A stretch of 64,000 nt of DNA, from the NCBI GenBank assembly GCA_965202985.1, contig CBDBCF010000001.1, positions 672,001 through 736,000 on the forward strand, given 5' to 3'. Below are positions 9,589 through 55,609 of the stretch, piece by piece. This DNA comes from Longimicrobiales bacterium (lineage in GTDB: Bacteria > Gemmatimonadota > Gemmatimonadetes > Longimicrobiales > Gaopeijiaceae). Positions within the stretch are counted from its first letter, which is position 1; every line of letters begins with the position of its first letter. Made by a program: the position numbers and the translations under genes. The notes beneath the pieces were generated by a model. That model saw only the letters and a list, made by a program, of their open reading frames with translations, did no database searches and was not told where the DNA came from.

Positions 9589-12500
9589 CTACTCGAAGAC
9601 GATCCTGCCCGAGAGGCCGATGCGGCGTTCCGGAGGCTGGACGCCGCTGGCGACGTGCTCGCCGAACAGGTCCATCATCAAGCGCAGGCCGGGCGACCGG
9701 CTCCCGGAGGACTCGGTAAGTTGCCCCGTGGTCTCGCCGCCCAGCAACGACCAGCGGGTCCCCACGTTCACCCGATGGCCCGTCGGTCCCTCGCGGCTCC
9801 ACCGGCCGAACGGCTTGACCTGGGCACCGCCGGACAGCAGCACGCCGTAGCCGACCTCCATCGCCACGCGGTCGGGCGCCCAGCCCGGCGCGCCCGTGGC
9901 CGCCAGCACGCCGGAGCCTGCCGGGAGGCCCGGGCCTGCCTGCGAGCCGGCGGTCGAGCCGCCGTCAGCGCCCGACGCTCCCTGCGCCGACGGGTCGCCC
10001 TGGTTGTGAGCGAGTCCCGCGCCTGCTGGGACGTTCACGCCGACTGGCCGCACGGCGCCGACCGGCGCGCTGAAGCCGGCCGCGCCCGCGGTCCGCCACA
10101 CGTCCGCGCCCCCTTGCCACAGCGTCCGCGCGCCACCCCCGGCGTCGCCCCACGTCGGCTCGACCGAGAACGACAGCCCGCCCTCGCTCTCGCCCCCGCC
10201 GCCCGGCTGCAACCTCAGCGAGAACCCCGCGCCCCAGTCCTTGAAGTCGCGCTCCTGGTGCACCAGCAGCGCACGACCCCGCGCCGTCATGCTGAACCCG
10301 CTGGCTTGGTGCGCCAACCCCACCTCGGCGCCCGCCTCCGCGCCCATCCCCGTCTCCGCGTCGCCACCGTCGAAGCGACCCCCCACCTCGAACCGCGTCC
10401 GCATCGCCAGCCCGCCGCCCAACGACCACTGGCCGCCGATCTCCGGCGCCAGTCGCACGCGCTGCGCGTCCGCCGTCACGCCCGCCAGCCCCGTCACTTC
10501 GTCCGACAAGATGCGCACCGCGAAAGCGTCCGCCTTCAGCGCCAACCCGCCGGTCAGCTCCTGACGCACGCCCAGCGCGCCCATGCGCATCTCCAAGTCC
10601 GTGTCGAAACGGCCGCCCGCCGACTCATCGAGCGTCGCGTCGCCCCGGCCCGCGCCCGCCAAGCCCCACACCCCGAACCCGCCGCCGGACGACCAGTGCA
10701 GGTAGGGGTACAGGCTGGTCAGGCGAGCGTCGACCGATCCCGCGCCGTTGACGTCGCTGTCGAAGCCGGCCTCCATGTCGCTGCGCGAGCCCGCAAGGCC
10801 CATGAGGAACCCGGAGCCGAACCGGTAGTCCAGCCCCAGGTAGGCGGAGCGCGTGCGGCCGTCCATGGCGAAGCCGTCTCGGGGACGGCCCTCGAACTCG
10901 CCCAGGTTCGCCTGGCCCCACACCGTCCAGCCCGACCGGACAGCTTCGCTGGCTGCCGAGCCGGCCGAGCCGCCGAACGACAGCTGGAACGAACTCTGCG
11001 AGCGCAGGCCGCGGGCGTCGACGGGGTTGAACGTCAGGCCGCCCCGGTCGGCGCGAGCGCCGCGCTCGGCATCGGCTTGCTGTTGGCCCTGGTAGGAGCC
11101 GCCCATGCCGCCTGCGCCGCCCGCTGTCGGTTGACCGAATGCACCGCCCCGGCCGTCGCCGAACAGCAGCGCGGCCAAGTCGACAGTCCCGCCGGCCGCG
11201 TCCGGCGAGCCGGGGTGCGCGATCTGCAGCCCCAGCAGGCCCGTCGCGCCCCGCACCAGCGACTCGAGGCCGCAATGGCCCGAGCCGCCTGCATCGCCGT
11301 TGCCGCCACCTGCGGCCTGGCCCGAGCCGCCCGCGGCGGCATTGCCCTGGCCGTCGTCGGCTTGACCGTGCACTGCGTTCGCAACGTCGGCGAAGCCGCC
11401 GGCGCCGAATGCATCCGAGCCGCCCGTGCCGCAGGCCAGCGAGCGCCCGCCGAGCTGCACGTGCGACCGGCCCAGCGCGCCCGACGACCCCAGCCCCAAC
11501 CGCCCGCCGATCGCCTCCACCGTCTCCGTGCCCAGCGACCTGCCGAACGCCGCCAGCGTCAGCTCCAACGCACGCGCACGCTCCGACCGCGACGCCTCCA
11601 CCGTCACACGCACCTGCTGCTGAGCCGACAACCCGCCCGGATCGCTCGCGCGTACCGTCACCACAGCCTCGCCGATCGCCCGCGGCGCGATCGACAACCG
11701 GCCCGCGCCCGTCACCGTCGCAGCCGCCACGGCCGGCGACGACGATTCGACCGCGTACGCCAGCGCGTCGCCGTCCGGGTCCCGGAAGTACTGCCCCAAC
11801 TCCTCTTCCACCGCGGCGCCGTACGCCTCGAGCGTCTTCGGCGACATCGCGCCCACCGCCTCCGGACCCTCGTTCACGTCCAGCAACGTCACCGTCACGC
11901 CCGCCTCGGCCGTCAGTCCGCCCGCGTCCGTCGCCCGCACCGTCAGCGCGAACGTCGGCGGACCCGCCTCGTAGTCCTCGCCGCTCCCCACGTACCGCAC
12001 CTCGCCCGTCCGAGCGTCCACCTCGAACCGCGCGGCATCGCCTTCGGCCAAGCTGTACGCCGGCGCGTCGCCGCGGTCCGGGTCCGTCGCTTCGACCACG
12101 CCCAGCGTCAGCGGTCCGGCAGCGTTCTCCGCCAGCTCGAAAGCGTATGCGGAGTCCGCGAACGCCGGCGCCTCGTTCACGTCCACCAGCGCGACCGTCG
12201 CGGCGACCCGCGCCGCCAGTCCCTCGCCGTCGGTCGCCACCACCTCGAACTCCCAGGACGCCGGGCCCGCCTCGTAGTCCTCGCCCTCGCCCGCGTACCG
12301 CACCTCGCCCGTAACAGCGTCCACCTCGAAGAGCGCCGCGCCTTCGCCCGACAGGCTGTACACGAGCGTGTCCGCTCGGTCCGGGTCCGCAGCCTCGACC
12401 ATCCCCAGCACCAACGGTCCGGCGACGTTCTCCTCGAACTCCCACTCGTAGACCTCCGCAGCGAACACGGGCGCCTCGTTACGGTCCAGCAGCGCCACCG

Positions 12501-15500
12501 TCACCCGCGCAGACGCCGCGACGCCGCCGCGGTCCGTCGCACGGACCTCGAGCGCCCAGCTCTCCGGGCCCGTCTCCGCGTCCTCGCCTTCGCCCACGTA
12601 CCGCAACTCGCCCGTAACAGCGTCCACCTCGAACTGCTCGGCGGCGCCTTCGGCCAAGCTGTACGTCGGCGGGTCGTCCCGGTCCGGGTCCGTCGCCCGC
12701 ACCGCGCCCAGCACCAACGGTCCCGCAGCGTTCTCCGCCAGCTCGAACGCATATGCGCTGTCGACGAACGACGGCGCCTCGTTCACGTCCGCAACCATCA
12801 CCGTCGCCGTCGTCCGCGCCGTACGGCCCAGCAAGTCCGTCGCCGTCGCCTCCAAACGCCACATGCCTATGCTCGTCTCGTAGTCCTCGCCTCCGCCAAC
12901 ATACCGCAACTCGCCCGTGCCAGCGTCCAGCTCGAACCGGTCGGCGTCGCCCGCCACCAGCGCGTAAGTCAGGGTGTCGCCCTCGTCCAAGTCCACAGCC
13001 TCCATCACCCCCAGAACCAGCGGACCCGCAGCGTCCTCCGCCAGCTCGAACCGCCAACCGTCCTCGACGAACGACGGCGCCTCGTCGTTCTCGTTCACGA
13101 CCTTCACCGTCACCTTCGCCACCGTCTCGAGCTGCTCGCCCTCGCCCACGCCGTCCGTCACCGCCACCACCAGCATCACGTACTCCGAACGCTGCTCCGC
13201 GTCCTCGCCACCGCCAACGTAAGTCACCACGCCGCTCGACACGTCCACCTCGAACAGCCCCTCGCCTCCGCTCTCCAACCCGTAGCGCATCTCGGCGCCC
13301 AACGGACTCGTCGCAACCACCTCGCCCAGCGGCAGCGGGCCCGCAACGTTCTCCGCCAACTCGAACTCGTACTCCAACCGACCGAACACCGGGTCCAGGC
13401 TGCCCGCGCCGTTCACCGCGTGGTCCGCCAAGTCCGTCACCGCGTGCGCGCCCAGGTCCAGCGCCGCGAGCGTCGTGCCGCCCGCGATCCGCAGCGCGCC
13501 CGCCGACTCCGCCAGCGCGTCCGCCGGGATGCTGATCCCGTCCGGGTCCCGGTCCGCAGGACGGACCACGTACTCGAACGCCAGCACCGCAGTGCCCGAA
13601 CCCGACACGTAGACCGCGTGCCGCGTCGTCCCGCCCACGTCGATCGCCAACCGCGCCGCAGCCGTGTTCGCAGCCGTCGCGGCCGTCATCGACGCCGCCA
13701 GCGCCGGCGACGACGACGCGCCCGCCACATCGACCGGCCGGCTGAACGTCACCTCGACACGGATCACGCCGCCAGCGCCGTACAGTCCCGTCGCCACAGG
13801 CTCGCTCGTCACCGCCAAGCCCACCACCACCGGCGCGACCTCGACCGTACCGTCCACCTTGTCGGCAGCAGCAGCCGCAATCGCTTGGCCGCCCAGCGCC
13901 AGCGTCGCCGGACGAACGCCGTCCGCCGTGTTCACGATCGCACCGCCGTTCAGCGTCAACGCAGCAGCTGCAACGCCGACGCCGTCCGCGTCCGCGTCCA
14001 CCCCGCCCGTACCGCTGCCGCCGCTGCCCGCGCCCTGCACACGGTACGCGAACGACAACGTCGCCGTGCCGCTGCCGCCCGCGTAGCTCGCCTGACGCGC
14101 AACCGTCCCCACCGTCAGCGCCAGCTGCGGCGCGCCCGTCACCGTCACCGCACGGTCGAACGTGACCTGAACCTCGATCCGCTCGCCCAGCCCGTAGGTG
14201 TCCCCGCTCTCCGGCGCGCTCGACACCGCAACGCCGCTCACCGTCGCGCCCGCCAGCGTACCGTCCACCTTGTGGCCCGATGCCGCGCTCAACGCATGGC
14301 TGCCCAGCCCCAACGCCGCCGCCGTCGATCCGTCGCGGGCGTCCGCGATCGCGCCGCTGTTCAGCGCCAGCGCGCTCGCGCCGACCTCGATCCCGTCCGC
14401 GTCCGCGTCCGCAGCCACCACCGTGTAGCGGAACGTCAGCGCCCGCGTGCCCGTCCCGCTCGCGTAGTCCGCCTGCCGCGTCTGCGCACCCACCGTCAGC
14501 GCCACCCGAGGCGTGCCCGTCACCGTCACCCGACGGTTGAACGTCACCTGCACCTCGATCGACTCGTCGCGGCCGTACGTCGTCGCCACCGCAGGCGAAC
14601 TCGTCAGCGACACGCCCGACACCGCCGCCGCCGTGAAAGTACCGCCCGCAACCTTGTGGCCCGCGCTGTTCGTTACCGTGTGCGTCCCCAGCCCCAGAAC
14701 CGCGTCCACCGTCCCGCCCGCCACGTCGATCGTCCCGCCGTTCAGCGCCAACGCGCTCGCCGCGATGCTGATGCCGTCCGCGTCCGCGTCCGCAGTCACC
14801 ACCACGTAACGGAACACCAGCGACGCCGTGCCGCTGCCCGAAGCGTAGCCCGCCTGCTTCGTCGTGCTGCCGATCCCCAACGCCAGCTGCGGCGTGCCCG
14901 TCACGTCCACCGCCTTGTTGAACACCACCGTCGCAACCACCGTGTCGCCGCGCTCGAACGTGTCGCCGATCGGCGGCGACGCGATCGACACCGCGCTCAC
15001 GCCCGGCGGGCCCTGAGTGCCGTCCACCCGATGGCTGCCGCTGTTCGATATCGCATGGCCGCCCAACCCCAGGCTCGCAGCCTCGTTCGCGTCGCGAGCG
15101 TCCGCGATCGCGCCCCCGTTCAGCGACAACGCGCTCGCGCCGATGCTCAACCCGTTCGCGTCCGCGTCCGCTGCAACCACCGTGTAGGCGAACGACAGCA
15201 CGCGGCCGTCCGTCGTCGTCACGTACGACGCCTGCCGCGTCTGCGTACCGATCGTCAGCGCCAGCTCGGGCGAGCCCGTCACCGCCACGTTGCGGTTGAA
15301 CGTCACCTCGACACCGATCTCCTCGCTCAACCCGTACGTGCCCCCGCCCGCCGGACTGCTCGTTATCGTCACGCCCGACACCGACGCCGCCGTGAACGTA
15401 CCGCCCGCTACGCGCAGTGCGCCGTCGTCGCCGATCGCATGATGCTCCAGGCTCAGCAAGGCGTCCGTCGTACCGCCCGCAACGTCGATCGTACCGCCGT

Positions 15501-18500
15501 TCAACGCCAACGCGCTCGCGCCGATGCTCAACCCGTCCGCGTCCGCGTCCGCCGTCGCCACCACGTACCGGAACACCAACGCCGCCGTGCCCGTCCCCGA
15601 CGCATACGCAGCCTGACGCGTCTGCGAACCAATCCCCAGCGCCAGCCGCGGCCCGCCCGTCACGTCCACCGCCTTGTTGAATACAACCATCGCAACCACC
15701 GTGTCGCCGCGCTCGAACGTGCCGCCCGGCGCCGCCGCCACCGTCAACCCCGCGACACCCGGCGGACCCAGCCCGCCGTTCACCTTGTGCGAAGCGTCGT
15801 TCGTCACCGCGCTCGAACCCAGCCCCAGCGACGCGGCCGCAGCGCCCGGACGCACGTCGGCGATCGTCCCGCCGTTCAGCGTCAGCGCGCCCGCCGCGAT
15901 GCTCAACCCGTCCGCGTCCACGTCCGATGGTCGAACCGCGTAGCCGAACACCAGCGTGTCCGCCTTGCTCGAAGCCGACTCCCAGCTCGCCTGCCTGGTC
16001 GTAGTCCCGATCGTCAGCGCCAAGCGCGGCGCGCCCGTCACCGCCACCGGTCGCCCGAACGCCACCTTCACCTCGATCGACTCGCCCAACTGGTACGTCT
16101 GACCGCTCGCCGGAGCGCTCGATATCGTCACCGCAGTCACTGCCGGCACCGTGAACGTACTGCCAGACACCTTGTGGCCGCCGCTGTTCGTCACCACCAC
16201 GCCCGCGCCCAGCCCCAACGTCGCGTCCAGCGTCCCGCCAGCCAGACGGATCGTCCCGCCGCTCAACGTCAGCGCGCTCGCTGCGATGCTCAATCCGTCC
16301 GCATCCGCGTCGCCCGACGCCACCACGTACCGGAACACCAGCGACGTCGTGCCCGAACCGCTCGCGTAGCTCGCCTGCCTGGTCGCGCTCCCGATCGTCA
16401 GTGCGAGCCGCGGCGTGCCCGTCACGTCCACCGCGCGGTTGAACTCCAGCTCGACCTCGATCGTCTCGCCACGCTCGAACACGTCGCCCACCACGGGAGA
16501 ATCGATCGTCAGCGACGTCACCCCCGGCGGTCCCTGGCTCCCGTCCACCTTGTGCGCAGCAGCGTTCGATATCGCGTTCGAACCCAGTCCCAACGTCGCA
16601 GCCGTCGTGCCGCCCACCAGCACGATCGTCCCGCCGTTCAGCGTCAGCGCGCTCGCTGCGACGCCGATCCCCGTCGAATCCGCGTCCGCAGCAACCACCA
16701 CGTAGCGGAACACCAGCGTCCGCGTACCGCTCCCGCTCGCGTAGCTCGCCTGACGCGTCAGCGTGTCGATCGACAACGCCAGCTGCGGCGCCCCCGTCAC
16801 CGCCACCAAACGCTCGAACTCGACCTCCACCTCGATCGCCTCCGTGCGTCCGTACGTGCTGTCGCTCGCCGGCGCGCTCAATATCGCCACGCCGCTCACC
16901 GCCGGCGCCACCTCCTTCGTCCCGTCGACCTGGTACGCCACCGCGTCCGCGAAGTTCCACGGAACCAGCGACAGCCGAGCGTCCGTCGCCGTCCCCGTCG
17001 CTCGAATCGTCGCGCCGCCCGGCAACGTCAGAGCGTTCGCTCCGATGCTGATCCCCGTCGAGTCCGCGTCCGCCGCAACCACCGTGTAGCAGAACACCAA
17101 GATGTTGCCGCTCGTTACCGCGTCGCACTGCGCAGCGCTCCGCGTCTGCGCACCGATCCCCAAAGCCAGTCGCGGCGTGCCCGCCACCGTCACGCCCGTG
17201 TTGAACCCCACGCCCACCCGTATCTCGTCCCCAAGTCCGAACACGCTGTCCGTGCTCGCGTAAGAAATCCCGCTGTTCGTCGCCGACATGAAGAACACGC
17301 TCGTCACGTACGGCACGGCGCCCGAAACCTTGTGCGCCAAAGCGTTCGAAAACACGTGCGACCCCAACGCCAGGTCCGCCGCGTCCGACCGTTGCCGACT
17401 GTCGCCGATCGTGTCCGACGCGCTCACCGCCAAAGCGCCCGCGCCCACGCTGATCCCGTCCGCGTCCGCGTCCGTCGCCTGTACCACGTACCGGAACGTC
17501 ACACGCGTGAACGTCGCGTCCCTGCGGTTGTACTCCGCCTGACGCGTCGAGTCGCCGACCTCCAACGCCAGACGCGGCGTCCCCCCCACGTACACGCCCC
17601 GCACGAACTCCACCTCCACCTCGATCGCCTCGCCCCCCAAGTACGTGTCCCCAACCGCCGGACTGCTCGTTATCCTCAACCCCTTCACCACCGGCGCCGT
17701 CGCCGTGTTGCCCGCAACCTTGTGCGCCGCGCTGTTCGTTATCGCATGCGCGCCCAGACCCAACACCGCGTCCGTCGTCGTCCCCATCCGCCGAATCGTG
17801 GACCCGGACGGAGTCTCCAATGCGCTCGCGCCGATGCTGATCCCGTCCGCGTCCACTTGCTGCTGCGACACCGTGTACTCGAACTCCAACGACGTCGTGC
17901 CCGAACCCCTCCGGTACCACGCGTTACGCAAGCTCGACCCGACCCCGACACGCACCCGCGGCGTGCCCGTCACCGTCACCGCAGCGTTGAACTCCACCGT
18001 CACGACCACCACGTCGCCCAACTCGAACGTGCTGTCCGCCGGAGCATCGCCAATCGACACCCCCGTCACCACCGGACGGTCGCCCGCAACCTTGTGCGCC
18101 CCAGCGTTCGCGATCGCATGAGTGCCCAGTCCCAGCTCCGCCGTCACCGTCCCGCCCGCCTTGTTGATCGTCCCGCTGTTCAGCCCCAACGCGCTCGCTG
18201 CGATGCTCAACCCGTCCGCGTCCGCGTCCGTCGCTTGAACCACGTACCGGAACGTCAGCGAATCCGTCCCCGTCCCGCCCACGTAGCCCGCCTGCCGCGT
18301 CGCCGCTCCGATCCCCAACGCCACCTGCGGCGTCCCCACAACGTCCACCGCCTCGCTGAACTTCACCCACACCTCGATCCGGTGGCCCACCCCGTACGTG
18401 CTGTCCGAACCCGTCACGCTCGCCAAACCCGCGCCCGCCACCACCGGCACGCCCTGCAAACCATTCACCTTGTGCGCAGCAGCGTTCGACACCGCGTGCG

Positions 18501-20076
18501 CGCCCAGCGACAAGTCCGCCCGCTCCGTGCCCCCGACGCGCGTGATCGGAGTCGCGTAGTTGCTGAATGCGTTCGCCGGGATGCTGATCCCGTCCGCGTC
18601 CATGTCCGCACGCGTCACCGTGTATCGGAAGAACACGTCGTCCGCGTCCTTCGAGTACCAGCCCGCCGCCCGAACGTTGTCCCCGATCTCCAGGTTCAGC
18701 GTCATGTTGCCCAGAAAGTTCGGCGTCACCACCGCACGGTCGAACTGAACCCGCACGTTGACGTTGTCCCCCGCAGCGTACGTCGAGTCCGTCCCCGCTC
18801 CGCTCAAGAACGTCACCGCCGATATCCTCGGCACGATCAGCCCGCCGTTCACCTTGTGCGCACCAGCGTTCGTGACCGCGTGACTGCCGAGCGACAGCGT
18901 CGCGTCCACCGTCGTGCCCGCGTTCCTGATCGTCGCGCCGGACGGGACCGCCAGAGCGCTCGCGCCGATGCTGATCCCGTCCGTGTCTTCGTCCGCCGCC
19001 ACCACAGCGTACTCGAACACCAGCGAGTCCGTGCCCGTCCCGCTCGCGTAGTTCGCCTGCCTGGTCTGCGTGCCGATCCCTAAAGCCAGCTGCGGCGTGC
19101 CCGTCACGTCCACGTTCCCGCTGAACACCACCGCCACACGAATCCGCTCCGCCCGACCGTAAGTGCTGTCCGCAGCTACCGGCGTGCTCGCCACCGCCAC
19201 ACCGGTCACGGTAGCCGGTGGAATACCCACCACCTTGTGCGCCGCGGCGTTCGTGATCGCATGGCTGCCCAGACCCAGGATCGCGTTCTTCGTGCCGAGC
19301 CGGATCGTCCCGCCGTTCAGGGCCAGCGCGCTCGCGCCGATGCTGATCCCGTCCGCGTCCGAGTCCGCCGCCACCACCACGTACCGGAACACCAGCGACG
19401 CCGAACCCGTCCCGCTCGCGTAGTTCGCCTGCCGCGTCGAGTCGCCCACCGTCAACGCCAGCTGCGGCGTGCCCGTCACCGCCACCGTCGAGTCGAACGC
19501 CACCGTCACCGCAATCGTATCCCCAGTATCGTACGTGTTGTCGGCGCCCGCACTGCTGCTGATCGTCACACCCGTCACCTTGGGCAACCCCAGGGCGCCG
19601 TCCACCTTGTGCGCCGCCGCGTTCGTGATCGTATTGCCGCTCAGGCTAGCGTTAATAGTCAATCCAGATTGGAAGTTGTCAAGATCATTAGCCAGCGCGT
19701 TCGCGCCGATGCTGATCCCGTTCGCGTCCGCGTCCGTCGCCACCACGTGGTACCAAAACTCCAACCAGGTGAGCGGGAAACCACTGCGAGGCGGGTTTCC
19801 CGATGCGCAAGAAGCCCCAGCACAGGCGCTTCTGGTCGTCGCCCCGATCGTCAGGCCCAACGACGCTGTATTGTGGTTATGGCTCCAGTCGGCGCCGACG
19901 TTCAACCATATCCTTACCTTGATGGTGTCGCCCGCCACGTACGTGTTGTCCGCACCCGCCGAGCTGACGATCTTCAAGCTGTCCACGTTGCTTTGGGCGC
20001 TCAGCGGCGCCGGTGCCGCGATTCCGAACGCCGCCAGCAGGCCGAGGGCCGCGAGCGCGGTTCTGGCTACCGGCAT
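9589..20076 (-). CDS. Giant repeat-rich adhesin/autotransporter-like protein, copy 1 (3495 aa from ATG 20076; the RBS-preceded ATGs at 20138-20162 are out of frame across a poly-C tract)
   Basis: Signal peptide (MPVARTALAALGLLAAFG...LSAQ), 17 ~125-aa repeats (TY..G..I.V.V.F...V.VTGTPQLAL.IG..TRQA.YASG.GT..L.FRY.V...DAD.DGISI), 5 cadherin repeats (ELAEN, ATDPD, DVNEAPxF), one FRDPDGD domain, and a C-terminal region of amphipathic beta strands ending GRIVFE. Confidence 0.85.
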   Translation of the reverse strand: MPVARTALAALGLLAAFGIAAPAPLSAQSNVDSLKIVSSAGADNTYVAGDTIKVRIWLNVGADWSHNHNTASLGLTIGATTRSACAGASCASGNPPRSGFPLTWLEFWYHVVATDADANGISIGANALANDLDNFQSGLTINASLSGNTITNAAAHKVDGALGLPKVTGVTISSSAGADNTYDTGDTIAVTVAFDSTVAVTGTPQLALTVGDSTRQANYASGTGSASLVFRYVVVAADSDADGISIGASALALNGGTIRLGTKNAILGLGSHAITNAAAHKVVGIPPATVTGVAVASTPVAADSTYGRAERIRVAVVFSGNVDVTGTPQLALGIGTQTRQANYASGTGTDSLVFEYAVVAADEDTDGISIGASALAVPSGATIRNAGTTVDATLSLGSHAVTNAGAHKVNGGLIVPRISAVTFLSGAGTDSTYAAGDNVNVRVQFDRAVVTPNFLGNMTLNLEIGDNVRAAGWYSKDADDVFFRYTVTRADMDADGISIPANAFSNYATPITRVGGTERADLSLGAHAVSNAAAHKVNGLQGVPVVAGAGLASVTGSDSTYGVGHRIEVWVKFSEAVDVVGTPQVALGIGAATRQAGYVGGTGTDSLTFRYVVQATDADADGLSIAASALGLNSGTINKAGGTVTAELGLGTHAIANAGAHKVAGDRPVVTGVSIGDAPADSTFELGDVVVVTVEFNAAVTVTGTPRVRVGVGSSLRNAWYRRGSGTTSLEFEYTVSQQQVDADGISIGASALETPSGSTIRRMGTTTDAVLGLGAHAITNSAAHKVAGNTATAPVVKGLRITSSPAVGDTYLGGEAIEVEVEFVRGVYVGGTPRLALEVGDSTRQAEYNRRDATFTRVTFRYVVQATDADADGISVGAGALAVSASDTIGDSRQRSDAADLALGSHVFSNALAHKVSGAVPYVTSVFFMSATNSGISYASTDSVFGLGDEIRVGVGFNTGVTVAGTPRLALGIGAQTRSAAQCDAVTSGNILVFCYTVVAADADSTGISIGANALTLPGGATIRATGTATDARLSLVPWNFADAVAYQVDGTKEVAPAVSGVAILSAPASDSTYGRTEAIEVEVEFERLVAVTGAPQLALSIDTLTRQASYASGSGTRTLVFRYVVVAADADSTGIGVAASALTLNGGTIVLVGGTTAATLGLGSNAISNAAAHKVDGSQGPPGVTSLTIDSPVVGDVFERGETIEVELEFNRAVDVTGTPRLALTIGSATRQASYASGSGTTSLVFRYVVASGDADADGLSIAASALTLSGGTIRLAGGTLDATLGLGAGVVVTNSGGHKVSGSTFTVPAVTAVTISSAPASGQTYQLGESIEVKVAFGRPVAVTGAPRLALTIGTTTRQASWESASSKADTLVFGYAVRPSDVDADGLSIAAGALTLNGGTIADVRPGAAAASLGLGSSAVTNDASHKVNGGLGPPGVAGLTVAAAPGGTFERGDTVVAMVVFNKAVDVTGGPRLALGIGSQTRQAAYASGTGTAALVFRYVVATADADADGLSIGASALALNGGTIDVAGGTTDALLSLEHHAIGDDGALRVAGGTFTAASVSGVTITSSPAGGGTYGLSEEIGVEVTFNRNVAVTGSPELALTIGTQTRQASYVTTTDGRVLSFAYTVVAADADANGLSIGASALSLNGGAIADARDANEAASLGLGGHAISNSGSHRVDGTQGPPGVSAVSIASPPIGDTFERGDTVVATVVFNKAVDVTGTPQLALGIGSTTKQAGYASGSGTASLVFRYVVVTADADADGISIAASALALNGGTIDVAGGTVDAVLGLGTHTVTNSAGHKVAGGTFTAAAVSGVSLTSSPAVATTYGRDESIEVQVTFNRRVTVTGTPRVALTVGAQTRQADYASGTGTRALTFRYTVVAADADADGIEVGASALALNSGAIADARDGSTAAALGLGSHALSAASGHKVDGTLAGATVSGVAVSSAPESGDTYGLGERIEVQVTFDRAVTVTGAPQLALTVGTVARQASYAGGSGTATLSFAYRVQGAGSGGSGTGGVDADADGVGVAAAALTLNGGAIVNTADGVRPATLALGGQAIAAAAADKVDGTVEVAPVVVGLAVTSEPVATGLYGAGGVIRVEVTFSRPVDVAGASSSPALAASMTAATAANTAAARLAIDVGGTTRHAVYVSGSGTAVLAFEYVVRPADRDPDGISIPADALAESAGALRIAGGTTLAALDLGAHAVTDLADHAVNGAGSLDPVFGRLEYEFELAENVAGPLPLGEVVATSPLGAEMRYGLESGGEGLFEVDVSSGVVTYVGGGEDAEQRSEYVMLVVAVTDGVGEGEQLETVAKVTVKVVNENDEAPSFVEDGWRFELAEDAAGPLVLGVMEAVDLDEGDTLTYALVAGDADRFELDAGTGELRYVGGGEDYETSIGMWRLEATATDLLGRTARTTATVMVADVNEAPSFVDSAYAFELAENAAGPLVLGAVRATDPDRDDPPTYSLAEGAAEQFEVDAVTGELRYVGEGEDAETGPESWALEVRATDRGGVAASARVTVALLDRNEAPVFAAEVYEWEFEENVAGPLVLGMVEAADPDRADTLVYSLSGEGAALFEVDAVTGEVRYAGEGEDYEAGPASWEFEVVATDGEGLAARVAATVALVDVNEAPAFADSAYAFELAENAAGPLTLGVVEATDPDRGDAPAYSLAEGDAARFEVDARTGEVRYVGSGEDYEAGPPTFALTVRATDAGGLTAEAGVTVTLLDVNEGPEAVGAMSPKTLEAYGAAVEEELGQYFRDPDGDALAYAVESSSPAVAAATVTGAGRLSIAPRAIGEAVVTVRASDPGGLSAQQQVRVTVEASRSERARALELTLAAFGRSLGTETVEAIGGRLGLGSSGALGRSHVQLGGRSLACGTGGSDAFGAGGFADVANAVHGQADDGQGNAAAGGSGQAAGGGNGDAGGSGHCGLESLVRGATGLLGLQIAHPGSPDAAGGTVDLAALLFGDGRGGAFGQPTAGGAGGMGGSYQGQQQADAERGARADRGGLTFNPVDARGLRSQSSFQLSFGGSAGSAASEAVRSGWTVWGQANLGEFEGRPRDGFAMDGRTRSAYLGLDYRFGSGFLMGLAGSRSDMEAGFDSDVNGAGSVDARLTSLYPYLHWSSGGGFGVWGLAGAGRGDATLDESAGGRFDTDLEMRMGALGVRQELTGGLALKADAFAVRILSDEVTGLAGVTADAQRVRLAPEIGGQWSLGGGLAMRTRFEVGGRFDGGDAETGMGAEAGAEVGLAHQASGFSMTARGRALLVHQERDFKDWGAGFSLRLQPGGGGESEGGLSFSVEPTWGDAGGGARTLWQGGADVWRTAGAAGFSAPVGAVRPVGVNVPAGAGLAHNQGDPSAQGASGADGGSTAGSQAGPGLPAGSGVLAATGAPGWAPDRVAMEVGYGVLLSGGAQVKPFGRWSREGPTGHRVNVGTRWSLLGGETTGQLTESSGSRSPGLRLMMDLFGEHVASGVQPPERRIGLSGRIVFE
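11870..13400 (-). repeat. Five tandem cadherin-like repeats in copy 1
   Basis: Recurring ExAEN, DPD/DLD, EDYE and DxNEAPxF calcium-binding motifs at about 100-aa spacing; boundaries approximate. Confidence 0.85.
13400..19990 (-). repeat. 17 tandem ~125-135 aa beta-rich (probably Ig-like) repeats in copy 1
   Basis: Counted by the terminal HKVxG-type motif in the translation; boundaries approximate. Confidence 0.8.
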
Positions 20077-20116
20077 CGCGCGGACCCAGAACGCACGGGC
20101 CGGGCCGGTCGAAAAA

Positions 20117-20133
20117 GGGGGGGGGGGGGGGGG
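20117..20133 (-). repeat. Homopolymer tract G17 (+) / C17 (coding strand), candidate phase-variation site of copy 1
   Basis: Directly visible; lies between RBS-preceded ATGs (20162/20144/20138) and the signal-peptide ATG at 20076. Confidence 0.8.
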
Positions 20134-20141
20134 CTCATGTT

Positions 20142-20176
20142 CATCTGGGGTGTCCTCAGCATCTGGGTGTCCTCAG
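20142..20176 (-). promoter_or_regulatory. Tandem 17/18-bp duplication containing RBS and ATG (CTGAGGACACCC[C]AGATG x2)
   Basis: Plus strand catctggggtgtcctcag then catctgggtgtcctcag; each unit places GAGG 8-9 nt before an ATG. Confidence 0.7.
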
Positions 20177-20240
20177 CGTCCAAAGCGGTATCTGTCCTAT
20201 GCCTAACCTAACGTAAACTGGGGAAGATTCGGCGTTCACT

Positions 20241-21023
20241 TCAACGGCGGCGGCGTACCGGCGGGAGATCGTCGCCCTGGTCCGCTCGGGACGGTCGCCG
20301 GAGGCCGTGGCCCGCGCCGGACGGCCCGGCCAGCACGCGCGCTCCGTCGGGCACCCGAAAGACGAACAGGTCGGGCTTGATCTGCGGCGCAAAGTCCAGG
20401 TCCGCCAGGTCCATGGTGCGGACGCTTCCGTTCTCCTGGTGCACTTCCAGCCGGCGGATCACGTGCTCCTCCCGGTCGAGCCAGACTCTGGCCCGGTGAA
20501 AGGCGGCCCGGCCTTGGGGCTCGAGCTCCACGATGCGGCAGTTCCGACCCGCCACGACCTCCGATCCTCCGTCCGAGGCACGGTACTTCGCGCCCGGGTC
20601 CTCCAGAAACGCCCGAAACACGTCGTAGCGCCCCGGGGCCGTCGCCGCCGGGTACCGCACCACTTGGTCCTCTTCCACGCTGGGGTAGTAGACCCAGACG
20701 TGTTCGCCGTCGGACACCACCATGTCGCCATCGGGATCGTCGAAGCGCATGGAGAACAGATTCGGGCGCCGTTGGCATACGCGGCCGGCGCTCTCGACCC
20801 GGCGCCCCAAAAGACGCACTTCGACGACTTGGCGGAACGTCGCGCACACGGCGTCGACGCCTCGGTAGCGCGCGGCGGCGTCTTCCATGGCCCGAACGGC
20901 GTCGTTCGCGCCGGATCCGGTGCCGCCGGGCGGCTGGGCGCGCGCAAGGCCGGGGAGCACGGTCGCCACGCAGAGCGCGACGCAACCGGTCGCCGCCCGG
21001 AGCGCACGTCTCAACTGGGGCAT
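20241..21023 (-). CDS. lolA: Outer-membrane lipoprotein carrier LolA family (C-terminal tail runs into the cassette element)
   Basis: Signal peptide, ATFRQ, RPNLFSMRF..PDG..VVSDG..VWVYYP, F.F.VP.GA.V; follows ftsK. Confidence 0.85.
   Translation of the reverse strand: MPQLRRALRAATGCVALCVATVLPGLARAQPPGGTGSGANDAVRAMEDAAARYRGVDAVCATFRQVVEVRLLGRRVESAGRVCQRRPNLFSMRFDDPDGDMVVSDGEHVWVYYPSVEEDQVVRYPAATAPGRYDVFRAFLEDPGAKYRASDGGSEVVAGRNCRIVELEPQGRAAFHRARVWLDREEHVIRRLEVHQENGSVRTMDLADLDFAPQIKPDLFVFRVPDGARVLAGPSGAGHGLRRPSRADQGDDLPPVRRRR
20251..20311 (+). mobile_element. Remnant resembling IS3-family transposase orfA, identical to 54071..54131
   Basis: Translates AYRREIVALVRSGRSPEAVA; 61-bp identity to the second copy checked by eye. 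Confidence 0.65.
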
Positions 21024-40298: not shown

Positions 40299-53987
<13,689 letters not shown>

Positions 53988-54055
53988 GTCCTCACCGTCC
54001 GAAAGGGCTCTTGTCTTGTCCCAGCGTAAGCTGGGAAGTTGGGAAGATTTCGGCG

Positions 54056-55609
54056 TCAAGTCAACGGGATCGGCGTACCGGCGGGAGATCGTCGCCCTGG
54101 TCCGCTCGGGACGGTCGCCGGAGGCCGTGGCGCGCGAGTTCGAGCCGTCGGCCGCCAACCTACGCCCGCGGATGGGCCGCCTTGTAGACGCGGCGCAGCC
54201 GCTCCTTGGACGCCGGGCGACGCCAGCGAGGGCGACCAGTCCGTGTCTTCGGCTTCGACGCCCGCGACGAGAATGCGGGTGCGGCCCGTTGCCGCGTCGA
54301 CCACGAAGACGCCGTGCCCGTAGCTGCGTTCGCCGGTAAACACGATGTGCCTGGAGTCGGGTGCCCAGCTCGGGTCTTCGTTGTTCCCTTCCGTGGTAAG
54401 CTGAACCAGGCGTCCCTCGCCGCCTTGGGTGTCGGCAACCAGGATTTGGAAGCGGGTGCGACGTCCTTCGGCGCGCCCGGAGAAGGCGACCTGCGTGGAG
54501 GCGGGGGACCAGTCGGGGTCGGTGAAGTGGCCACCTTCTCCGTACTGGTAGGGCGACAGCAGGACGGCCTCGCCGCCCGTGGACGGCATGACGTAGATCT
54601 GGGGGGTGGCGGTGCCCAGACGGCTGGACGTGAAGGCGACCTGCCGGCCGCCCGGCGAATAGGTGGGCTGCAGGTCGATGTGGTTGCCGCCGCCGATCCT
54701 GGACGGGTTGCAGCAGGCTCCGCGCAGGTCCACGGTGAACAGCTCGCTCCGGCGTCCGTTCAGGCGGGCGAAGGCGATCTCGCCCCCGTCCGGGTGGTAG
54801 GCGGGGGTGATCTGCTGGCCGTCGGCGCCGGTGGCCAGGGCCCGCGACTCCTCCGACGCCACGTCCATTTCGTACAGCGTCGGGAACCCGCCCTTCCACG
54901 ACACGTAGGCGATGCGCCCGCCGTCCGGAGACCACGCGGGCGAAGCGACCAAGTTCTCGTCCCAGGTGACGCGCCGCAGGTTCTCGCCGTCGGCGTCGAC
55001 CACGTACAGCTCCTTGCTGGTCGGGTCGTTGCGCGGCCGCATGGCGAAGGCGATCCGGCTCGCGGCCATCCCCGGTTCGCCCGTGATCCACTCCACGACG
55101 GCGTCGGAAGCGGCGTGCACGGCCAGCCGGAAGTCGGGATCGTCCGGCGCGGGAACGGAGAAGCGGCGACGCGCGCGCAGGTTGGCGAAGACCACGTCGT
55201 GGACCTCGATCTCCAGCACGAACCCTTCGGCGGTTCCGTCCAGCCCGCCCTTGACCAGCCAGTCCGCGCCCAGGCCGTCCCACAAGCCGTAGTCCACGCC
55301 CCTGCCGGCCAGCGCCGCGGGCAGGGAGTCGACGACTTGGAAGCGGTCGGAGTAGCGAAGGTCGCGGACCACGATGTCGTGGACGCCTTGGGCTTGGCTT
55401 TCTCCACCGAAGCGGCCTTCGAAGGGAAGCACCGCGATCGGCGGCACGTAGGTGGTCTCGTAGACGGTCCCCAGCGACACGCCGGGGATCGTCGCCTCCT
55501 CCTCTTGGGCAGCCAAGCCGTGCGCCCACGCCAAGACGCCGCCGGCCCACGCCGCGGCGCACCCGATCGCGAGGGGCCGTCGCCTGCCGGTGGGCGGTTG
55601 CCGGCGCAT
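54056..55609 (-). CDS. tolB: Tol-Pal beta-propeller protein TolB (C-terminal tail runs into the cassette element)
   Basis: DLRYSDRF N-domain, repeated P.WSPDG/P.YSP PD40 blades; follows tolQ/R/A-like genes. Confidence 0.88.
   Translation of the reverse strand: MRRQPPTGRRRPLAIGCAAAWAGGVLAWAHGLAAQEEEATIPGVSLGTVYETTYVPPIAVLPFEGRFGGESQAQGVHDIVVRDLRYSDRFQVVDSLPAALAGRGVDYGLWDGLGADWLVKGGLDGTAEGFVLEIEVHDVVFANLRARRRFSVPAPDDPDFRLAVHAASDAVVEWITGEPGMAASRIAFAMRPRNDPTSKELYVVDADGENLRRVTWDENLVASPAWSPDGGRIAYVSWKGGFPTLYEMDVASEESRALATGADGQQITPAYHPDGGEIAFARLNGRRSELFTVDLRGACCNPSRIGGGNHIDLQPTYSPGGRQVAFTSSRLGTATPQIYVMPSTGGEAVLLSPYQYGEGGHFTDPDWSPASTQVAFSGRAEGRRTRFQILVADTQGGEGRLVQLTTEGNNEDPSWAPDSRHIVFTGERSYGHGVFVVDAATGRTRILVAGVEAEDTDWSPSLASPGVQGAAAPRLQGGPSAGVGWRPTARTRAPRPPATVPSGPGRRSPAGTPIPLT
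54071..54190 (+). mobile_element. Remnant resembling IS3-family transposase orfA N-terminus (HTH), longer copy
   Basis: Translates AYRREIVALVRSGRSPEAVAREFEPSAANLR, matching the (F/Y)RR..V.LVR.GR.PE.LAREFEPS pattern of IS3-family OrfA; no orfB present; right boundary approximate. Confidence 0.7.

Follow-up and report, generated by a model that had tools for sequence, protein, structure and literature searches.

A run of 17 C lies at the start of the gene for a giant surface protein in the DNA analyzed here (the window: 64,000 nucleotides of a Longimicrobiales bacterium, positions 672,001 to 736,000 of contig CBDBCF010000001.1), and the locus raises the question of what this gene, termed copy 1, produces at that tract length. 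The run is likely a random expression switch of the gene. The original prediction was that copy 1 is switched OFF by the tract; the reading favored here, from sequence comparison, is a slipped-strand switch with three settings, in which C17 is probably a restart state of low-to-medium output and not a clean OFF state (probability roughly 0.5). The gene start is composed of the following features.

20221 to 20316, minus strand: dispersed element matching the DNA behind the 3′ end of a Xer-type recombinase gene; a second occurrence lies upstream of copy 2.
20142 to 20177, minus strand: tandem duplication of 18-19 nt, with two GAGG Shine-Dalgarno-like motifs and the ATGs 20162 and 20144 (sequence; pairing -5.6 kcal/mol).
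20117 to 20133, minus strand: C17 homopolymer, a likely slipped-strand switch (sequence).
20077 to 20116, minus strand: 40-nt leader from the tract to the second ATG, with no stop in any of the three frames.
20074 to 20076, minus strand: second ATG, the signal-peptide start, placed at the base of a predicted hairpin and without a Shine-Dalgarno (SD) motif.
20067 to 20069, minus strand: TAG of the C17 frame, 7 nt past ATG 20076, giving a 10-nt overlap.
20067 to 20162, minus strand: upstream open reading frame (ORF) of the C17 state, which contains five prolines and terminates at TAG 20069-20067 (translation).

The ATGs 20162, 20144 and 20138 share a single frame, offset by 2 from ATG 20076 on the minus strand, and GAGG is located 8 nt ahead of 20162 (20174-20171) and 9 nt ahead of 20144 (20157-20154). 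With exactly 17 C, the length in the assembled sequence, this upstream frame terminates at TAG 20069-20067 after 31, 25 or 23 aa, counted from 20162, 20144 and 20138, respectively, and the resulting ORF has no match in Pfam. With 15 or 18 C the frame is joined to the 3495-aa ORF, and with 16 or 19 C it extends 197 nt beyond ATG 20076. The TAG is built from the rare Val codon GTA and a following G. The upstream ATGs pair with the 16S tail of the same genome at -5.6 kcal/mol, and ATG 20076 at -3.1 kcal/mol, close to the median of -3.0 for random ATGs. The coordinates and frames given in the original prediction, and the lack of an obvious ribosome-binding site at 20076, were accurate. By eye, no canonical -1 slippery heptamer for ribosomal frameshifting stands in frame where the C run meets T. 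At the site next to lolA in three congeners, a rimO-like gene follows lolA and an ortholog of the giant gene was not found.

The gene downstream encodes a protein with the following parts.

9589 to 20076, minus strand: giant surface protein of 3495 aa, with Ig-like repeats of about 125 aa, cadherin repeats and a C-terminal beta-barrel (GC3 0.89 in frame).
19996 to 20076, minus strand: signal-peptide-like N-terminus of 27 aa, basic-hydrophobic-AxA (by eye, from Sec features; conserved among paralogs).
11884 to 12147, minus strand: best-scoring cadherin domain, PF00028 (E 2.8e-35 for the whole protein).
9592 to 11040, minus strand: predicted autotransporter-like beta-barrel, 12 strands and about six more (AF2 pLDDT 77).

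The top Foldseek match of the predicted barrel is BrkA 3qq2 (E 9.6e-6, TM 0.51 on the target), and 28 of its 30 Atlas matches fall within PF03797 clusters, with recognition under the Atlas threshold. PF03797 is matched by 19 of 46 aligned barrel homologs and, below the cut-off, by one of six paralog C-termini (E 0.0026); a profile search with the copy 1 protein itself gave no PF03797 match, a PDB sequence search using the barrel profile gave none at all, and NCBIfam returned only one sub-cut-off match, to tandem-95. The single-sequence AF2 model of the barrel reaches pLDDT 31. The usual type Va barrel has twelve strands; here a C-terminal beta-barrel translocator is predicted with about 18, and the PF03797 cut-off is not reached. 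The protein would work like a type Va autotransporter and is classed here as autotransporter-like.

That the tract belongs to a switch is indicated by the distribution of long runs in this genome. Runs of G or C number 1275 at 6 nt, 24 at 8 nt, none at 13-14 nt and 26 at 15-33 nt, where geometric extrapolation predicts about 2e-5 runs at 15 nt against the 26 found at 15 nt or more. Ten of these 26 long runs precede paralogous giant autotransporter-like genes, 18-60 nt before the family signal peptides; others lie inside frames that we take, from their motifs, to be SGNH-like and methyltransferase-like. Near-identical flanks carry tracts of differing length (26 vs 21, 27 vs 21, 18 vs 14, 20 vs 18), and over 45 family loci the tract measures 11-31 C, with a median of 20. 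The tracts thus combine the marks of contingency loci: excess length, placement at the 5′ end of or within surface, glycan-modifying and restriction-modification types of gene, and variation among homologous copies. Genomes within the genus contain 26, 24, 6 and 42 long runs, the complete relatives G008, G012 and G039 contain 4, 1 and 0, and the fragmented genomes G007, G022 and G040 contain 24, 20 and 121. Because the tracts stand at gene starts, and because the complete relatives have so few compared with this genus, an origin in sequencing noise was rejected. MutS and MutL are retained in this genome, which may explain the great length of the tracts. The claim that a surface protein is switched by slipped-strand mispairing at a 5′ poly-C is therefore well supported, by the run excess, by the placement before family genes and by the leader pattern.

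Upstream translation was assessed in a family set of 45 tract-bearing loci from seven genomes, comprising a first 33 and 12 held-out loci from the same subfamilies, with signal Mets chosen by hand. The main-frame leader is free of stops in 44 of the 45 loci, where 13.3 would be expected to contain one; counted per cluster, a stop is present in 1/27 against 7.5 expected (P = 0.0003), and among the held-out loci in 0/12 against 4.9. These stop-free leaders make it likely that translation from upstream into the gene is real. The 16 nt preceding the tract include an ATG in 19/33 loci (about 4 expected), and SD pairing of -5 or better at the second ATG occurs in only 4/33. In nine of the 45 loci the 60 nt upstream of the tract contain no ATG; six of these offer a GTG whose SD pairing is -5.8 or better, two have an SD-led ATG 69-72 nt upstream and one has neither. 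In 45 of the 46 family loci that are not duplicates, the tract is followed by a second ATG that begins a complete signal peptide, and the leaders in between, whose GC3 is not coding-like, range from 3 to 332 nt over 27 unrelated clusters.

The position of the stop in the C17-type frame bears most directly on what happens at 17 C. Within -2 to +13 of the signal-peptide ATG, a window picked once the first 33 loci had been viewed, this frame has a stop in 44/45 loci and 26/27 clusters, against a genome background of 300/697 genes (43%); in the held-out loci, for which the prediction was written beforehand, it was found in 12/12. The other out-of-frame phase has a stop there in 0/45 loci, and the next three windows of the C17-type frame have one in 4, 5 and 5 of 45. 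The near stop takes several forms, namely TGATG (9 loci), ATGA (16), and TAG or TGA at +7 (16), +10 (1) or +13 (2); the 16 ATGA among these 44 represent a form also found in 227/697 genes of the genome, and the TAG at +7 may be a single inherited event, the loci being related. In loci lacking a TGATG or ATGA overlap, the near stop is present in 19/20, compared with a background of 41/438. GTA supplies 18 of 33 Val codons at codons 2-6, compared with 5% in N-termini of the genome, and synonymous resampling gave a near stop in an expected 16/33 loci, where 32 were observed. Two loci have GCA in place of GTA, and both have TGATG. That the stop is kept at the same spot by several different sequences points to re-initiation at 20076 in the C17 state.

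Re-initiation of this kind amounts to translational coupling, whose published properties, as given in parts of the sources, can be set beside the family. In 44/45 loci the conserved stop and the downstream start are only a few nt apart. The optimal spacing is -4 to +3 (PMC12548453); overlaps of -1 or -4 are present in 25/45 loci, and copy 1, at -10, lies outside the optimum. Coupling dropped strongly from -4 to -25 in Escherichia coli constructs, an SD is not strictly required, and a natural coupled pair at -10 is known (PMC12548453, in part). Overlaps longer than -8 are rare (PMC10666635, in part). Structure right behind the stop reduces coupling (PMC12548453), and a predicted hairpin sits behind the TAG of copy 1, where it counts against coupling. 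In Mycobacterium tuberculosis, an SD-less gene, ppe2, is fed by an upstream ORF (uORF) via an AUGA overlap, and stops 3 or 6 codons beyond the start reduce its expression sharply (PMC11260477, in part). In the family itself, a tract-less paralog without an SD starts within an ATGA that it shares with the stop codon of the preceding gene.

Two further signals depend on how loci are counted. Earlier stops in the C17-type frame are depleted when every locus is counted (6 vs 13.0, P = 0.004), and per cluster the depletion is not significant (5 vs 7.4, P = 0.16). By the nearest ATG, the current phase is C17-type in 19 loci, fused in 12 and the third in 5 (P = 0.017), an excess that is gone when the best-SD start is taken (13/10/7, P = 0.41). 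The restart state may be the main ON state. A restart rule for the whole genus is not supported, since the near stop is absent in most non-family tract genes that have an early in-frame Met.

The second copy in the window offers a direct comparison.

53948 to 53975, minus strand: C28 tract of copy 2, preceded by ATGs at 3 and 12 nt and currently set to the fused frame.

The C17-type frame of copy 2 would terminate in a TGATG overlap. The parallel originally drawn between the leaders of the two copies holds for their layout and fails for their sequence. The natural fused N-terminus of copy 2 has no relevant Pfam match up to E 10, and the family leaders split into 27 clusters and do not share the conserved N-terminal extension motif that defines an extended signal peptide region (ESPR).

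In the proposed mechanism, ribosomes would load at the GAGG-led ATGs 20162 and 20144 and read poly-Pro at every tract length. With 3n C (15, 18) they would read through into the gene and yield an N-terminally extended precursor; efp, the gene for EF-P, which this poly-Pro-extended form may need, is present. With 3n+2 C (14, 17, 20) they would halt at TAG 20069, 7 nt beyond ATG 20076, and a restart at this ATG, or unfolding of the hairpin, would yield a precursor with the native signal peptide in lower amounts. With 3n+1 C (16, 19) the out-of-frame run of 197 nt into the gene would occlude ATG 20076, and this setting would be the true OFF. Slippage at replication would shift single cells between settings and change which of about ten giant surface proteins is displayed. 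The switch of the original prediction is thus retained, and its OFF call is insecure, because a stop lies 7 nt past an intact signal-peptide ATG and because the tract length is one consensus value. For the family, we propose, more tentatively than for copy 1, that poly-C in a short uORF picks fusion, re-initiation or occlusion; two of three lengths would be expressed, with differing level and N-terminus, and dozens of surface proteins of 2,000-13,000 residues, from two or more genera of sponge-associated Gemmatimonadota, would share the arrangement.

The best surviving alternative, which we regard as rather unlikely, is a two-state frameshift switch, in which protein is made from 3n C only, C17 is OFF, ATG 20076 is no more than an internal Met, and the stop close to it reflects inheritance or cuts a wasted peptide short. 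The open main-frame leaders and the SD-less second ATG fit it, as do the poor coupling by 10-nt overlaps in published reporters (PMC12548453 and PMC11260477, each in part), the tracts of the SGNH-like and methyltransferase-like genes in the same genome, which are plain in-gene frameshift sites, and the precedent of NalP, which works in this way (PMC3723659, in part). However, the supposed internal Met begins a complete signal peptide that is retained while the leaders vary in length and sequence. Moreover, selection for early stops predicts them throughout the leader in both wrong frames, whereas they are found at the second ATG in one frame (44 vs 0 of 45).

It is less probable still that the switch is real and the state call is artefactual, the common length being other than 17 (for example 15 or 18, fused) or a broad mixture. 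Next-generation sequencing calls are least reliable at homopolymers of 13 or more (PMC4235727, in part), no listed piece spans the C17 tract in public contigs of four runs, with zero depth at 20151-20232, and one paralog near a contig end and one copy of the Xer gene each carry a frameshift, of a single base in the former. Yet the 218 kb of 15 giant ORFs, in which 301 G/C runs measure 5-7 nt, are open save for that one paralog break, so short runs are assembled accurately, and in two near-identical paralog pairs the tract lengths differ by a multiple of three, which preserves the phase.

An action independent of frame, in which ATG 20076 initiates by itself and tract length gradually tunes transcription, mRNA structure or small-RNA binding, has in its favor the signal peptide complete from 20076, the nine loci with no near ATG and a precedent for graded control by leader repeats (PMC8295292, in part), but it is improbable, since an excess of upstream ATGs and a frame-specific depletion of stops are unexpected in an untranslated leader, eight of those nine loci have another SD-associated start, the tract is unpaired in the predicted fold (whose z of +1.7 vs shuffles indicates no special leader structure), and a pattern search of 20000-20500 gave no sigma-70-type promoter against which the tract could be positioned, and no terminator-like site.

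If the three-setting reading is true, phase state in this layout can no longer be read from a genome by the standard rule that a single length out of three is ON, and one device unites slipped-strand mutation with translational coupling, two processes usually handled as separate explanations of frame transitions (PMC3711429, in part). Combinatorial surface variation in the style of pathogens, drawing on about ten giant adhesin-like proteins in each genome, would then exist in an uncultured bacterium from sponge samples. A literature search, with subscription journals mostly outside its scope, found no paper linking a homopolymer switch with re-initiation and none on phase variation in sponge Gemmatimonadota; a pattern scan of JGI metagenomes for the family gene start gave no match. 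For phase-variable genes of Campylobacter jejuni, sites of initiation and termination have been mapped by ribosome profiling (bioRxiv 10.1101/2022.11.09.515450).

Several known systems share parts of this arrangement. As in classical type Va autotransporters (BrkA 3qq2, EspP 2qom, Hbp 3aeh, NalP 1uyn), the predicted layout has a signal peptide and a long passenger, followed by a C-terminal outer-membrane barrel that is ended by an aromatic residue near the C-terminus; unlike in these, the passenger consists of Ig-like and cadherin repeats, and about six strands are predicted beyond the twelve. NalP and MspA of Neisseria meningitidis are phase-variable autotransporters with tracts of 6-15 C, of which one length in three is ON (PMC3723659, in part), and they resemble the present family in that poly-C lies within the 5′ coding region of an autotransporter gene, with the frame set by length modulo 3. 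Here, in contrast, the tract of 11-31 C precedes a second start that is complete with its signal peptide, one wrong frame has a stop at that start, each genome has about ten paralogs, and the host is uncultured and sponge-associated. The leader G-repeat of Helicobacter pylori tlpB is likewise a homopolymer of variable length that precedes a start codon and gives graded output; its control is exerted through pairing with the small RNA RepG (PMC8295292, in part), whereas the switch proposed for copy 1 would act by reading frame. Haemophilus influenzae lic2A shows multi-level phase variation from a 5′ repeat, with output beyond ON and OFF, and uses multiple start codons that precede the repeat in different frames (PMC3116884 and PMC4235727, each in part); copy 1 has its three upstream ATGs in a single frame and would owe the additional level to a restart at an ATG downstream. 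Finally, uPPE2-ppe2 is similar in that an SD-less gene has its start overlapping or abutting the stop of a short out-of-frame uORF. There the AUGA overlap is fixed and gated by a riboswitch (PMC11260477, in part), whereas here the overlap of copy 1 is 10 nt and a mutable homopolymer would choose among fusing, coupling and overrunning.

In copy 1, the minus-strand giant autotransporter-like gene, the region around the C tract is laid out as follows.

Minus strand: tandem duplication of 18-19 nt, source of both GAGG motifs ahead of ATGs 20162 and 20144
Minus strand: GAGG, 8 nt upstream of ATG 20162 and 9 nt upstream of ATG 20144
20133-20117, minus strand: C tract, 17 C in the assembled sequence
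Between the C17 tract and ATG 20076, minus strand: leader of 40 nt
20076 to 9589, minus strand: giant ORF of 3495 codons, GC3 0.89

As the original prediction had stated, the ATGs at 20162, 20144, and 20138 share one frame, two of them (20162 and 20144) have a GAGG 8-9 nt ahead, and with 17 C this frame ends at the TAG at 20069-20067. Frame counting agrees that 15 or 18 C fuses it to the giant ORF; at 16 or 19 C it reads 197 nt beyond ATG 20076. This second ATG has no obvious ribosome binding site, its pairing with the genome's own 16S tail being no better than that of a random ATG. The layout and frames can be read directly, as can the family pattern described below. Short tandem duplications of the SD/start region also lie upstream of several tracts (window 20142-20177; loci L125, L126, and L247).

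In the model that we favor, with a probability of roughly 0.5, the tract is a switch with three states. Slippage would change its length, and ribosomes would load at the upstream ATGs. At 3n lengths (15 or 18 C) the upstream frame would fuse with the giant ORF; at 3n+2 lengths, such as 17 C, ribosomes would stop and restart at the second ATG, with a yield that is probably reduced in copy 1; and at 3n+1 lengths (16 or 19 C) the second ATG would be occluded.

The family pattern comes from two sets of loci. The first, 112 tracts from G000 (the source genome) to G003 and L001/L002, gave 34 family matches, of which the second tract of an already counted gene was dropped, leaving 33 loci. The held-out set, 102 tracts from genomes G149, G122, and G075, gave 15 matches, less two L001/L002 duplicates and L296, which has no signal Met; predictions for the remaining 12 loci were recorded beforehand. 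In 44 of 45 loci, 12/12 held-out loci, and 26 of 27 leader clusters, the 3n+2 frame has a stop between -2 and +13 relative to the second ATG, against a background of 43% of 697 genome genes, in a count where loci are related, the window was picked on the first set, Mets were hand-picked, and 7 of the 12 held-out stops are ATGA, fixed by the second residue. Such stops occur at 4-5 of 45 loci in the next three windows, and the other wrong frame gives 0/45. The near stop is spelled TGATG (9), ATGA (16), or at +7 (16), +10 (1), and +13 (2). Among loci without TGATG or ATGA overlap it is found in 19/20, versus 41/438 genome genes, mostly through GTA, which the family uses for 18 of the 33 Val codons in positions 2-6, versus 5% in genome N-termini; both loci without GTA there have TGATG. 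A tract-less paralog without an SD has its start in an ATGA overlap with the stop of the upstream gene. By its sequence, this pattern bears the marks of termination-reinitiation. An SD is not strictly required for reinitiation coupling (PMC12548453), and an SD-less gene can be fed by a uORF (PMC11260477). Locus L230 (G149), a family member that has lost the usual signal Met, carries a C30 tract followed at once by TGATG, and a TAG persists close to where the start used to be.

The main alternative, a two-state switch in which C17 means OFF, is possible but less probable. The original prediction leaned to this reading; the 3n+2 frame is indeed out of frame with the gene, but plain OFF is probably wrong, since the stop at the second ATG is so widely kept. 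Several results weigh against restart. The upstream and giant ORFs of copy 1 overlap by 10 nt. Coupling in E. coli drops strongly from -4 to -25 and a chloroplast pair still couples at -10 (PMC12548453), and ppe2 output is sharply cut by stops 3 or 6 codons beyond the start (PMC11260477). Structure behind the stop hinders coupling (PMC12548453), and the predicted fold of copy 1 places a hairpin at the second ATG. Counted per cluster, the shortage of early stops in the 3n+2 frame does not reach significance (5 vs 7.4). The present phases of the 45 loci (19 restart, 12 fused, 5 overrun, 9 unassigned; P=0.017) lose their excess with best-SD starts (13/10/7, 15 unassigned; P=0.41), the restart excess is absent from 23 tract-bearing peptide-gene entries of relatives (9/11/3), and the near stop is missing from most non-family tract genes.

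The fused arm of the three-state model draws on the leaders. An ATG stands at most 16 nt ahead of the tract in 19 of 33 loci (about 4 expected), and a main-frame stop occurs in the leader of 1/45 loci (13.3 expected by shuffling), 0/12 held-out loci, and 1/27 clusters. Selection on the fused state, which the original prediction took as the ON form, is therefore likely. Leaders are otherwise unconserved (3-332 nt, without GC3 bias), whereas the second Met is retained together with its signal peptide. It is improbable that the tract tunes output by non-frame means.

That the C17 run is a slipped-strand switch of some form is very likely, and it bears such marks of a contingency locus as could be tested. 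In the source genome the lengths of G/C runs fall into two groups (24 runs of 8 nt and 26 of 15-33, with none of 13-14), and the longest A/T run is 8. Ten of the 26 long runs sit ahead of family signal peptides; others interrupt SGNH-like and methyltransferase-like frames, labels that we assign from motifs. Runs of at least 14 nt number 24, 6, and 42 in congeners and 4, 1, and 0 in three single-contig relatives. Tract length differs between copies with near-identical flanks, and the source genome encodes MutS and MutL. A wrong length call is unlikely. The giant ORFs are open across 218 kb with a single break near a contig end, so short runs are well assembled, but 17 is only the assembled value, and none of the listed public contigs spans the tract.

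Other tracts were seen in the same survey. C22, C24, and C21 tracts occupy the same spot in three paralogous SGNH-like genes (G000 C1:236913, C1:844542, C1:945326), two in frame and one out. Across genomes, tracts recur at matching positions in a DNA-methyltransferase-like and a PAPS-reductase-like gene (G000 C1:2443104, C1:1756566; L077, L136, L161, L246, L282; L139, L169), both candidates for phase-variable defence or methylation. Some tracts run straight into a -35-like hexamer, TTGACA/TTGAC (G000 C2:788096; L121, L140, L279), which suggests that promoter-type switches may exist alongside.

The source genome (3.86 Mb, two contigs, 68-69% GC) contains 15 long family ORFs. Among 13 listed sequencing runs, four sponge-metagenome runs from a single study each or together cover more than half of the genome's sampled words, and two other runs, both of one sample, may be its source. 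The copy-1 N-terminus is signal-peptide-like by eye, cadherin repeats are present, and the resemblance of the ~125-aa repeats to bacterial Ig domains is a lead only. The predicted C-terminal barrel has twelve strands plus about six more (pLDDT 77; AF2 on 46 sequences), with the BrkA autotransporter barrel as its top fold match; PF03797 is matched by 19/46 homologs and not by the copy-1 protein itself. This domain content points to an adhesin role. In a 13,057-codon paralog the sense-strand run ahead of a possible GTG start is G12 instead of C (G000 C1:1804394-1804405), and one giant gene has a pair of C20 tracts in front of it, separated by 305 nt and each served by a separate upstream ATG (G000 C1:2783197-2783540). 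The paralog at the left end of C1 (G000 C1:2850, minus strand) is shifted out of frame by a single base close to the contig end and seems to continue at C2:1, probably an assembly seam.

DNA upstream of both giant genes (window 20221-20316 and 54041-54215) matches the 3′ end of what we take, from its motifs, to be a Xer-type recombinase gene, together with the flank downstream of it. The element has four copies in the genome (including G000 C1:1459265-1459415 and C2:65322-65485), which may be att-like scars left by integration or rearrangement; compared with the gene on C2, the one on C1 carries a frameshift. A rimO-like gene follows lolA in three congeners; in the window (20241-21023), lolA is followed instead by the repeated element and the giant gene. 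A rimO-like query found only homologs of 32-34% identity in G000, so the gene has either been lost or falls in a part that was not assembled (assembly 92% complete).

Relatives carry arrays of short Cys-containing peptide genes with the layout AGGAG-ATG-poly-C(14-27)-core, a strong AGGAG, and a PWxxPxL motif (G003 L141, L142, L157, L163-L167, L169, L171, L180; G149 L236-L241), and in most of them the tract is closely followed by GTGA or TTGA. The motif recalls, in our judgment, RiPP leader peptides, and the arrays possibly encode phase-variable natural-product precursors; no maturation enzymes were seen in the flanks of L172, the sole locus whose flanks were checked.

In the literature searched, which reached few subscription papers, no homopolymer was found that selects between fusion and reinitiation. 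SSR switches with more than two levels have been described, working via several upstream starts (PMC4235727, PMC3116884) or via small RNAs (PMC8295292). The closest likeness is to NalP and MspA: the copy-1 tract would work like their poly-C phase variation (PMC3723659).
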